A stretch of 51,950 nt of DNA from a virus (Duplodnaviria; Heunggongvirae; Uroviricota; Caudoviricetes): the IMG/VR virus record IMGVR_UViG_2909303794_000011, positions 1 through 51,950 of that record; one strand, 5' to 3'. A program made the position numbers. Of the stretch, positions 42,001 to 45,000 are shown piece by piece (positions within the stretch are counted from its first letter, which is position 1; each line of letters opens with the position of its first letter).

Positions 42001-45000
42001 TTGCTTAACGCGCAATAAAGAAATGTAATAAACGCATGAACATAGGAAATCGAGTCAGACAACTTCGCCAGGCGAAGAACATGAAAATCGCCGATCTAGC
42101 TGAAGCAATAGGAGTGGATGCGGCGAATATCTCGCGCCTGGAAACAGGTAAGCAGAAACAATTCACTGAGCAAGCCCTGAGTAATATTGCCAGGAGCTTA
42201 GGTGTTGATATTGCTGATCTCTTTACCTCAGACGTCAAAAGTAATACTGTATGTAAAAACAGTATTAGTGAGGATGTTGCGCAGGTGAAGGATGTATTCC
42301 GTATTGAAATGCTGGATGTCAGTGCCAGTGCGGGAAATGGCCTTATCCAGGGCGGTGATGTCATTGATGTGATTCATGCCATTGAATACAGAACTGATAA
42401 TGCTGTATCGATGTTTGGCGGACGACCAGCCAATCACATTAAAGTTATCAACGTTCGTGGGGACAGTATGTGTCCAACCATTGAGCCAGGAGATCTCATC
42501 TTCGTTGATGTCAGTATCAATCAGTTTGATGGAGATGGTATCTATGTATTTGGTTTTGATGATAAAATTTATGTCAAACGACTGCAAATGATACCTGACA
42601 AACTACTGGTGATTTCTGATAACCAGATTTACCGTGAATGGGGAATTACCAGCGAAAATGAACACCGGTTTATGGTCTTTGGAAAGGTCTTAATCAGCCA
42701 GTCACAAACCCTTAAGCGACACAATTAACCCTTACCTCCTCATCAATTAGCCACCCGAAGGTGGCTTTTCATTATCTATTAAATTGCATATCTCGCAATA
42801 AAACACTTGCATAATGCGCAACTTCATTTTATCTTTCTTTCCAGACCAACAAACAAGGTACTAACAAAATTTGGTTGTAACACGGCGTATGGCACATGCG
42901 TCGTTAGCGGTCTGGGGACGTTAAAGGGGACAATCCACTCCTTGCTCGGGCAAACAAACCAGGTAGCCGGAATGTGCAAGTCAATGATGATGCTGATAAG
43001 ACGCCTAACCAGCGTGGCGATTCGGTTTGACGCCTGGGAAGAGACCAGGGTGCAACGATGAGGGCATTTATGGAGCCGCGACAAAGTGTGGTGCCGTAAC
43101 TGGCTAAGTGCTCTCAGCGTTGTGGTAATCCGCGAAATGGCGCGGCGGTAAGTATGGCGGGGTTACTCTTTCCCCGTTGAGGACACCGGATTGTCAGGTT
43201 GACCATACGCCTGAGTGACAACCCCACCACAACAGCCACTGCTTTGGAGGTACCAGTTTGTACACTTGCTTCCGGCTGGTACCGCTCTTTTTACAAAACA
43301 GAGAAGAGCATCACCGGACGACGGGCTCATAACCCAATCCATCCGGGCGGCTGCCACCGCAGGTGTTCTTCTCTGTTTTGTGGAGAAACTAACCGACCTT
43401 GCAGGGTCGATATGATGAGGAGCAGCAAAATGGCTAGTGAACGCAGTACTGATGTGCAGGCATTTATCGGGGAGCTGGACGGCGGCGTATTTGAAACCAA
43501 AATCGGCGCAGTTCTAAGTGAAGTCGCTTCCGGTGTGATGAACACGAAAACCAAAGGGAAGGTCTCACTCAATCTGGAAATCGAACCGTTTGATGAGAAC
43601 CGTGTGAAAATCAAACACAAACTCTCATATGTTCGCCCAACTAACCGCGGGAAAATTTCCGAAGAAGACACCACCGAAACGCCGATGTATGTCAATCGCG
43701 GTGGTCGCCTGACTATTCTGCAGGAAGACCAGGGACAATTACTGACTCTTGCCGGTGAACCTGACGGAAAACTCCGCGCAGCTGGTCGTTAATATCGTTT
43801 TTAATAAACTGATTATTTATCTCATCACTGAATATCTTTATATAGTGAGGACTTATTATGTCTCAGAACTTAGACGCAACCGCAATTAATCAAATCCATG
43901 CCCTTATTTCTGCTCAGGGTGTTAATGAAATTATCAGTAAGATTGGTGCCGATGCTGTGGCATTGCCTGAGAATTTCCGCATTCATGATCTGGAAAAATT
44001 TAATTTAAATCGCTTCCGTTTCCGTGGTGCGCTTTCCACTGCCAGCATCGATGACTTTACCCGTTATTCTAAAGATCTTGCAGATGAAGGCACCCGCTGC
44101 TTTATCGATGCCGATAATATGCGAGCCGTCAGTGTGCTTAACCTGGGTACTATTGATGAACCAGGTCACGCAGATAACACCGCCACTCTCAAACTGAAAA
44201 AGACAGCACCGTTCTCTGCTCTGTTGTCTGTTAATGGCGAGCGTCATTCCCAGAAGTCACTGGCAGAATGGATTGAAGACTGGGCCGACTACCTTGTGGG
44301 CTTTGATGCTAATGGTGACGCTATTCAGGCAACAAAAGCGGCTGCGGCTGTCCGTAAAATCACGATTGAAGCAAACCAGACCGCTGATTTTGAAGATAAT
44401 GACTTCAGCGGCAAACGCTCCCTGATGGAGTCTGTCGAAGCGAAAACCAAAGATATTATGCCAGTGGCATTTGAATTTAAATGCGTTCCGTTTGAAGGCC
44501 TGAAAGAACGTCCGTTTAAATTACGCCTCAGCATTATTACTGGCGATCGTCCTGTACTGGTTCTGCGCATTATTCAGCTGGAGGCGGTGCAGGAAGAAAT
44601 GGCTAACGAATTTCGTGATCTGCTTGTTGAGAAATACAAAGACAGCAAAGTAGAAACCTTTATTGGTACTTTCACCGCCTGATTTCATTACTGCAAATGC
44701 CCCTGCGGGGGCATTTATGGAAACGTAATTAACTCAATAATCGCCGGATGGTGAGGGCTTACTTTTACCCGAATTCAGCGCGGTGCAGCGCATATAAAGT
44801 GGAGAACGAAATGTCATTTATTAAAACTTTTTCCGGGAAGCATTTTTATTATGACAAGATAAATAAAGACGACATCGTGATTAACGATATCGCGGTTTCC
44901 CTTTCAAATATCTGTCGCTTTGCAGGACATCTTTCACACTTCTACAGTGTCGCCCAGCATGCGGTGCTTTGCAGCCAGCTGGTGCCGCAGGAATTTGCTT

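Follow-up and report, generated by a model that had tools for sequence, protein, structure and literature searches.

Small RNA (sRNA) loci in the early operons of prophages are already known as a kind, with DicF and sRNA-17 as described members. DicF is produced by early intrinsic termination together with processing by RNase E and RNase III (PMC9438474), and sRNA-17, 193 nt long, was identified by rapid amplification of cDNA ends (RACE) and Northern blot in an mEp460-like prophage of Escherichia coli K1 RS218 (Sun/Song et al. 2020, PMC7719688). The putL element of phage HK022 occupies a promoter-proximal position in the pL leader (PMC9378689). Here we analyse the interval 42771–43429 of the IMG/VR virus record IMGVR_UViG_2909303794_000011 (51,950 nt, hereafter the window, to which all positions refer unless another locus is named), which carries an mEp460/SfV/ST64B-like lambdoid prophage with this interval on its early-left (pL) side. 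A preliminary description had reported about 650 bp without a convincing gene and without an N-like antiterminator, and had suggested either an RNA-based element or a very divergent N. The boundaries given there are right, the first convincing gene being yfdP.

The interval is most likely an untranslated leader of the early-left operon, approximately 590 nt long, which encodes RNAs and not proteins. We consider it probable that this leader is a processed RNA array similar to the DicF operon, with an attenuating terminator and no need for N-type antitermination. BLAST against phages and E. coli genomes splits the leader into blocks that recur independently, so that it appears as a mosaic; the blocks are named A, S, B, terminator and C, and other phages combine such modules differently. 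Among non-redundant loci the order A-B-C was found in 22, A-C in 16, A-tRNA in 23 and B alone in 55, and module A was never located downstream of B or C. The helices of all modules (A, S, B and C) are supported by covariation, and the plus strand of 42830–43440 folds beyond its shuffles (z = −5.3, with −3.6 for the minus strand). The RNA-based option is thereby borne out more strongly than it had been proposed, by conserved folded modules with compensatory base-pair changes and by one segment matching the experimentally detected sRNA-17.

A DicF-type cassette in the leader

The part of the leader related to described sRNAs consists of the following features:
43052–43125, plus strand: S-stem cassette, with a 5' arm at 43052–43068, a 3' arm at 43106–43125, 16 bp and a 37-nt cargo
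43119–43233, plus strand: module B, a pseudoknotted RNA (alignment A4)
43119–26/43226–33, 43130–45, 43152–57/43203–08 and 43158–76, plus strand: closing helix, hairpin, helix and second hairpin of module B
43188–96/43216–24, plus strand: H-type pseudoknot helix of module B
43246–43292, plus strand: intrinsic terminator with the stem GGAGGUACCAG/CUGGUACCGCU, a 19-nt variable loop and then CUUUUU
43118–43291, plus strand: predicted sRNA-17 equivalent of 174 nt, comprising module B and the terminator hairpin, placed by primer mapping

Module B, closed by the helix GUUGUGGU/ACCACAAC, shares 93.5% identity with the 107 nt that directly precede dicF in the Qin prophage of E. coli K-12. Its structure pairs in 94% of the cells of A4 and 7 pairs are changed on both sides; these sequences are close relatives, and the covariation support for the structure is moderate. 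The terminator stands at the position of the DicF terminator, and at the same place relative to module B in 16 variant loci; its stem covaries in alignment A1, with GGTACC against GGCGCC or GGCACC. In the 16 IMG/VR variants B is constant, the sRNA body behind it is hypervariable, and a hairpin with a U-tract comes last. The window locus follows this DicF-type plan, module B standing directly 5' of a hairpin/U-tract terminator in a prophage early operon. The sRNA body in the window differs from DicF in that it is shorter and ends in the terminator. With the DicF model (RF00039), neither the gathering score nor the cut-off E ≤ 10 gave a match in the window, and the positive control, the Qin locus (L004), was matched at 3133–3184 with 76.7 bits, 14 nt past B.

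The boxA-like string CGCTCTTTTTA noted in the preliminary description is indeed located at 43283–43293, but it is made up of the 3' end of the terminator stem and the U-tract. Its GCTCTT part reads CGCCCTTTTT, CGCAATTTTTT or CGCACTTTTTT in homologues, so the likeness to boxA is local and unconserved. The weak hairpin with a GACGA loop that had been placed after it (CCG/CGG, approximately 43314–43324) gives way to a pairing favoured by covariation, CCGGA (43314–18) with UCCGG (43342–46), within a three-way junction. Neither nut- nor put-like features were found in the interval: no boxB-type hairpin follows the string, and there is no similarity to put, no partner in the pR operon and no Rfam family. 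A lambda-type N/nut system was rejected as a candidate, as the first pL gene is not an N-family protein, no conserved boxA (CGCUCUUA-like) with a boxB pentaloop occurs, a stem of about 24 bp follows the string at 43283–43293, and the P6 loop of module A (see below) is not a GNRA-like pentaloop.

The relation to sRNA-17 was established by mapping the published primers onto mEp460 (locus L001) in window orientation. The “full-length” primers span 4387–4580 of that locus on the pL-sense (plus) strand, from the 3' arm of the S-stem to the terminator: the 5' end, CGTTGTGG..., comes directly after ...AAGTGCTCTCAG, inside the 3' arm and at its A/G mismatch, and the 3' end, ...GGTACCGCTCTTTT, is the U-tract of the terminator. 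The primers for 5'-RACE and reverse transcription are antisense to the pL-sense strand, as is the Northern probe, so that the RNA observed must itself be pL-sense; the supplement, in both its sequence and its alignment, shows the reverse complement of what these primers and this probe detect (PMC7719688). The published amplicon for quantitative PCR (qPCR) starts at the first bases of module A and extends to where the B-type module ends, which indicates that A and B are co-transcribed. The flanking primer sites and the last 66 nt (43226–43291) are identical in the window and mEp460, but the window lacks the sequences of the full-length 5' primer, the 3'-RACE primer and the Northern probe. The core of about 100 nt is a Qin-type B in the window and the variant B2 in mEp460, so that the two loci, as judged from their sequences, differ by a cassette swap between the boundaries GUUGUGG and CCACAAC. 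The window locus shares the boundary sequences and the location of sRNA-17 and not the same 193-nt sequence. The B2 cargo family (GUUGUGGUGAAUGCGGCUCAGCGC...CACCACAAC) shares the closing helix of B and replaces B in mEp460 and in e14 (L005, 2361–2480); it is also found in a Buttiauxella locus (L013), and a truncated B2 start lies 3' of the DicF terminator in Qin (L004, 3200–3240).

These data also bear on the view that the locus holds an independent sRNA gene, transcribed from an ArcA-repressed promoter of its own, in which case module A would be promoter or operator DNA and not RNA. ArcA-dependent expression of sRNA-17 has been reported, and the published “promoter of sRNA-17” fragment corresponds to 42869–43118 of the window (PMC7719688); the sRNA is moreover expressed in lysogens, where pL should be repressed, and an internal ArcA promoter could be the source of this basal expression. 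We nevertheless regard a stand-alone gene as improbable. Module A has compensatory changes of the RNA type in 11 of 29 pairs, it occurs beside tRNAs in unrelated contexts, and the qPCR amplicon starts at its first bases, which means that it is transcribed with B. Read by eye, the sequence upstream of the mapped 5' end has no good −10, and the RACE protocol, in the form described, does not distinguish primary ends from processed ones.

CA-rich arm motifs (ACCACAACA and similar) are located at 43226–43238, 42846–42858, 42951–42963 and 43292–43300, one copy being just 5' of the terminator hairpin. They equal CACAACA, which has been quoted, in connection with the prophage anti-sRNA AgvB, as the consensus of GcvB R1 targets (PMC4104026), and if this copy were released, its sequence suggests that it could sponge GcvB. 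After the closing helix of B (43234–43238 and the A4 homologues), NN-CCA or N-CCA is present in several variants and AG-CCA in the window. With the 5' end mapping to the base of the B helix, this CCA recalls substrates of RNase P, of which the P1/P7 C4 RNA is one.

S-type stems and the stable-RNA slot

The consensus arms of the S-stem are (C)ACAAC-NNN-RAGNGCAY on the 5' side and RUGCNCUY-NNN-GUUGUGG on the 3' side. A pattern search of the fetched loci gave 187 unique instances over both strands, 93 of them on the module strand. The arms covary (GAGAGCA/TGCTCTC 40, AAGAGCA/TGCTCTT 39, AAGCGCA/TGCGCTT 11, AAGGGTA/TACCCTT 4), and the cargos between them are 47 nt long at the median. In the window, the last four bases of the S-stem are the first four of the B closing helix (GUUG, 43119–43122), and the two pairings are mutually exclusive.

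Module A is directly followed by an S-stem in 71 of 107 non-identical copies. In these 71, the slot after the stem (past GUUGUGG) is occupied 28 times by tRNA-Arg, 20 times by module B and at least 12 times by the B2 variant, from which it follows that the A-S unit is a conserved leader before a stable-RNA slot, and that the window sRNA sits where other phages keep a stable-RNA gene. A locus from IMG/VR (L136) has, about 20 nt 3' of module A (3519–3664), an S-stem that encloses a complete tRNA-like sequence with a GGTTCGATTCC T-arm, so S-type stems can flank tRNAs besides short cargos. As a general rule, tRNA-like T-arms in the cargo were dropped, the strict test being passed by 1 of 89 unique cargos. 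A K-turn in the S-stem was likewise rejected, as the 3' strand read by eye lacks a G-A beside the C-stem.

The 3' arm of the S-stem contains a string close to boxA, UGCUCUCA at 43109–43116 in the window and UGCUCUUU in many loci. In rrn operons, boxA (UGCUCUUUAACAA) is followed by a GU-rich boxC, and S 3' arms often read UGCUCUU(U)CC and then GUUGUGG, which resembles this succession. The window arm is one mismatch away from the core of the lambda boxA, GCUCUUA, and the A-S unit stands before stable-RNA genes, as rrn leaders do. Host Nus factors could then, independently of N, shield the untranslated RNA array from Rho through these sequences. This seems quite improbable to us, given that the boxA-like arm pairs with its 5' partner once made and shows no extra strand-specific constraint: changes from U to C on the 3' strand, which create A/C mismatches, are as frequent (10) as changes from A to G on the 5' strand (10). 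The string flagged earlier at 43283–43293 is, as described above, unconserved.

Module A, a proposed double pseudoknot before phage RNA genes

Module A has the following elements:
42869–43051, plus strand: module A, a double-pseudoknot RNA of about 180 nt (alignment A3 and profile)
42882–87/42899–904, plus strand: helix P1
42912–15/42959–62, plus strand: helix P2
43001–04/43012–15, plus strand: helix P5
42892–97/42972–77, plus strand: predicted pseudoknot 1
43007–10/43024–27, plus strand: pseudoknot 2
43033–49, plus strand: P6 hairpin with the 7-nt loop GAAGAGA

The proposed fold begins with a 5' hairpin and a long-range helix, followed by a second hairpin and a terminal one; the loops of the 5' and second hairpins each pair with a downstream strand. 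An IMG/VR scan with an invariant 18-mer gave 120 loci, which were dereplicated to 23 sequences of less than 93% identity (A3). In this alignment the proposed structure pairs in 95% of cells, against 27–44% when the partners are slid by 1–3 columns, and the 11 pairs changed on both sides account for 56 cells, compared with 17.5 ± 3 in shuffles. The predicted pseudoknot 1 is invariant in A3, partly because the search motif itself fixed one of its strands. RNAalifold proposed a nested alternative for the 5' part that uses the same strands; it was set aside because pair 20:32 toggles between G-C and A-U in 9 sequences. The profile matches the window at 42880–43051 (E = 3.5e-37), and module A has no match in Rfam. 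A comparison of its invariant GGUAGCC with the ops element of RfaH, made by eye, gave a match at 8 of 12 positions with a different critical 3' part, and this explanation was set aside.

The contexts of module A are varied. In P1 and P7 it comes directly after tRNA-Ile (trnI), ahead of ban; in phiV10/epsilon15-type and Klebsiella phages it lies in a small cassette just 5' of tRNA-Arg; in mEp390 it is downstream of the repressor, and in Phytobacter and Kosakonia prophages upstream of yfdP. In several loci (L048, L078, L069, L149 and L111) it is found at the extreme 5' end of pL-type transcripts, approximately 5–45 nt from the −10. This position matches that of HK022 putL (PMC9378689), and module A, like put, is a promoter-proximal structured RNA in the pL leader of an N-less lambdoid phage. 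The put RNAs suppress terminators by acting on RNA polymerase via the zinc-binding domain of its beta-prime subunit. Module A or B could be a put-like RNA acting in cis, which would make RNA polymerase resist the leader terminator and Rho and would replace N. In favour of this, the phage has no N, module A precedes untranslated tRNA and sRNA genes otherwise exposed to Rho, and B-type modules are always just 5' of a terminator. Sequence and fold nevertheless differ: short-word BLAST of HK022 putL and putR against the window gave only chance 9–12-mers, and the two pseudoknots of module A in about 180 nt have no likeness to the two stem-loops of put in about 70 nt. Whereas put is present in both the pL and pR operons, the modules described here occur once each, and the pR operon has no copy. 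Qin-type loci (the 55 with B alone) consist of B, DicF, terminator and dicB without module A, and P1 carries its copy of A away from promoters, after the terminator and the tRNAs. Finally, no convincing intrinsic terminator was found in 43430–46514, up to the end of the plus-strand operon at about 46514, so the left operon has no further convincing terminators to overcome and processive antitermination of the N or put type is probably not required. We therefore assign a low probability to a put-like function.

Module C and the start of yfdP

Downstream of the terminator, the leader contains:
43292–43383, plus strand: module C, with a stem 43292–43315/43362–43383 (about 24 bp), arm 1 at 43314–43346 and arm 2 at 43347–43360
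43323–43335, plus strand: anticodon-like hairpin GGG-CUCAUAA-CCC, one arm of the module C junction
43389–93, plus strand: CUAAC motif
43394–43409, plus strand: small covarying hairpin
43417–22, plus strand: Shine-Dalgarno sequence GAGGAG of yfdP

Module C is a long stem of the S type which encloses a three-way junction. In alignment A1 (17 sequences from about 12 genera), RNAalifold places 38 pairs in it, 12 of them with compensatory changes, and the profile match in the window has E = 1.5e-35. It is located upstream of yfdP in Mangrovibacter, Enterobacter, Leclercia, Kosakonia, Phytobacter, Scandinavium and others, is also present in SfV and many Enterobacterales, and lies upstream of xisE in e14.

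Together with the C that precedes it, the anticodon-like hairpin reproduces the anticodon stem-loop of E. coli initiator tRNA-fMet exactly over 14 nt; the tRNA sequence used is 100% identical to annotated tRNA-Met genes, of which there are 4 per genome. The string GACGGG-CTCATAA-CCCAATCC is exact in 28 of 51 unique copies of module C, most others having a close variant, and all 47 occurrences of the 13-mer in the 2.3 Mb of fetched loci fall within module C. In the defective prophage e14 the loop has decayed to UUAAUAA. Complementarity between the CUCAUAA loop and the start region of yfdP is limited to the 3-nt AUG, with flanks that are not conserved. The annotated ymfH of e14 (L005, 2363–2674) overlaps B2, the terminator and module C of that prophage, and is probably not a protein gene.

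Coding potential

Six open reading frames (ORFs) were called in the interval, with lengths including 41–86 aa and on both strands; they start in the operators or lack a ribosome-binding site. Small or divergent proteins, such as an analogue of N or the ORFs annotated in relatives (mEp460_036/037, phrog_3651), might be encoded here, and related phage records do annotate hypothetical proteins at this place. Two of the ORFs match PHROG families of unknown function, phrog_3651 and phrog_33599. These matches cover only module C, the window ORF spanning only the last 75 of the 162 profile positions of phrog_3651, and are read as ORF calls over conserved DNA. None of the six ORFs has a Pfam match and none is Arg-rich at its N-terminus. 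Counts of stop-free frames are uninformative for short GC-rich modules, whereas the phase of insertions and deletions is informative: the anchor-to-anchor lengths of module A across homologues fall into all phases (0/1/2 modulo 3: 7/9/7 and 11/4/8), so the indels are out of phase, and the substitutions follow the pattern of paired helices. The protein explanation is thus extremely improbable. No conserved protein-coding gene emerged from the profile search of the interval ORFs, and no conserved frame for a very divergent N. In mEp460, the closest annotated phage, no N gene is annotated either, only a Q-like late regulator.

Rfam 15 was searched with the gathering score for the whole window and with E ≤ 10 for 42650–43550; in the interval there were only chance matches, the best in 42650–43550 having 18.8 bits against a gathering score of 80. 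No tRNA or tmRNA was found in the window by ARAGORN.

Promoter and genetic surroundings

The interval is flanked by the following features:
41678–41938, minus strand: cro-like gene, divergent from the cI-like repressor gene
42036–42728, plus strand: cI-like S24 repressor gene
42749–42766, plus strand: hairpin and T-run terminator 3' of the cI-like gene (terminator scan, sequence)
42784–42798 and 42807–42821: two operator-type repeats TTGC-N7-GCAA, overlapping the putative pL −35
42807–42812 (−35, TTGCAT) and 42830–42835 (−10, TATCTT), plus strand: putative pL, with a start at about 42842
43430–43792, plus strand: yfdP, the first early-left gene, with its ATG at 43430 (120 aa, phrog_204)

The repressor is 99.6% identical to that of mEp460. 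The sequence TTGC-N7-GCAA has 6 exact matches in the window, 3 of which flank cI (42001, 42784 and 42807). The placement of pL as a weak sigma-70-like promoter is inferred from spacing and from homologous loci, the same layout of operator and −10 (ACTTGCG...GATTATCTT) being found directly 5' of module A in L048 and L078. After yfdP come yfdQ, yfdR and yfdS.

The early-left operon ends with an ORF of 64 aa similar to AlpA/Xis (46320–46514). Beyond 46514 there are long minus-strand ORFs, at 46717–50544 (1275 aa) and 50727–51950, and the region past approximately 46514 is probably the end of the prophage or another island. On the minus strand, Rfam matches to C4 antisense RNA (68.4 bits) and isrK (60 bits) at 40589–40777 sit in the 5' third of a 382-aa ORF (39989–41137, “regulatory protein Rha” in mEp460), the start of which is probably over-called; the layout resembles P1 c4-icd-ant and Gifsy-1 isrK-anrP. 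An ALIL pseudoknot, the frameshift element of the IS3 family, at 29907–30023 on the plus strand (120.9 bits) points to an insertion sequence within the prophage.

Discussion

We propose that transcription from the repressor-controlled promoter would produce module A first, then the S-stem, and then B with the terminator at 43246–43292, where some polymerases would stop. An RNA of about 174 nt (43118–43291) would be freed by a cut either within the S-stem or at the base of the closing helix of B; it would be the local counterpart of sRNA-17 and a sister of the Qin DicF locus. Polymerases reading through would transcribe module C, directly before the ribosome-binding site of yfdP, and by analogy with the lambda N leader this module may act as an RNase III-type processing and translation-control hairpin for yfdP. 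The terminator would in this way attenuate the short left operon.

Several points weigh against this proposal. The stem of the window terminator has one A/G mismatch, and partial read-through is assumed. The scan for consensus promoters made no call at the putative pL, which is weak by consensus, and cleavage of the S-stem by RNase III is suggested by analogy only, the one hint at it being that the published 5' end of sRNA-17 falls at the A/G mismatch in the 3' arm. For sRNA-17, only a handful of RNA-seq reads has been reported, and the authors list it on the opposite strand and place an ArcA-regulated promoter inside the stretch of module A (PMC7719688); it was, in addition, mapped in the B2 variant (mEp460/RS218) and not in the combination of cassettes present in the window. 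The model also leaves two features unexplained: module A is conserved as a double pseudoknot, and module C repeats the anticodon loop of the initiator tRNA.

A different reading, possible although unlikely, would give these two features a role. According to it, A and S would form an undescribed class of leader RNA before phage stable-RNA genes, and module C would be a functional mimic of the initiator-tRNA anticodon arm. The stable-RNA genes behind A and S are tRNA-Arg and sRNAs of the DicF/sRNA-17 type. Needing no phage protein, the unit could be an RNA-only anti-Rho or antitermination element, a self-processing RNA which sets the ends of neighbouring RNAs, or a released RNA acting in trans; the start of the P1 module A right after the CCA end of tRNA-Ile bears on the self-processing option. 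The mimic in module C could control initiation at the first early-left gene, or act as a decoy that diverts factors or toxins recognising tRNA-fMet.

Returning to the processed array with its attenuating terminator, a short left operon can apparently be regulated by a single attenuating sRNA terminator without N. One scheme would then unite DicF, sRNA-17 and the “dicF-like” region of P1, in which conserved stem arms double as recombination joints, so that DicF-type sRNAs can diversify while their flanks stay constant. Pieces of the leader were found in 4769 of 5426 complete E. coli genomes, and also in P1-like plasmids, Stx-converting phages, Shigella SfV-type phages, phages of Salmonella and Klebsiella, and several other Enterobacterales. 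Two concrete RNA structures, the double pseudoknot in module A and the anticodon mimic in module C, occur in Shiga-toxin and meningitis-associated prophages. Apart from DicF, the modules are not in Rfam, and phage records are mostly blank or annotate “hypothetical proteins” there. To our knowledge, and according to the test against Rfam 15, neither the family of module A nor the pseudoknotted structure of module B has been described before, nor has the mimic of the initiator-tRNA anticodon in module C. On the same basis, we know of no description of the S-stem cassette architecture that ties together DicF, sRNA-17, the P1 ban leader and phage tRNA cassettes.

Comparison with known systems

The published account of sRNA-17 treats it as a stand-alone ArcA-regulated gene, without the module structure, the covariation or the link to DicF described here. 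A close relative of the window locus is dicBF of Qin, where the sRNA also lies inside a repressor-controlled early-left operon, with an S-type stem before B, a terminator at the same position and protein genes after it. The two differ in that the Qin cassette follows three small ORFs and has no module A, whereas in the window it is part of the leader, behind A and S, and the DicF body itself is replaced. The ban leader of P1 likewise has module B, adjoining the ban promoter together with an annotated “dicF-like region” and its terminator, right after a C1-controlled promoter, as well as tRNA genes and module A. Its order is B-terminator, tRNAs and then A (between trnI and ban), and it has no module C.

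For the distal part of the leader, the comparison is with the lambda N leader, which also has a long GU/CA stem with an internal cargo just 5' of the ribosome-binding site of the first pL gene, followed by an (A/G)CUAAC(U/C)GAC motif (lambda reads AGCUAACUGAC) and then the Shine-Dalgarno sequence. The arms have no sequence homology and their polarity is reversed, the 5' side being CA-rich in the window and GU-rich in lambda, and lambda has nutL and N, neither of which is found in the window. The long GU/CA stem of lambda is the RNase III site; the S stem (16 bp) and the C stem (about 24 bp), both covarying, reach the duplex length of about two helical turns of RNase III stems, which flank or adjoin the RNA they release or a ribosome-binding site. 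The operator of E. coli thrS is an mRNA-leader hairpin that copies a tRNA anticodon arm. Module C resembles mimics of this type in having, within a 5' leader, a hairpin modelled on the anticodon stem-loop of one specific tRNA, with the difference that this is the initiator tRNA-fMet (three G-C pairs and a CAU loop), and that the gene downstream encodes a phage protein and not the cognate synthetase.

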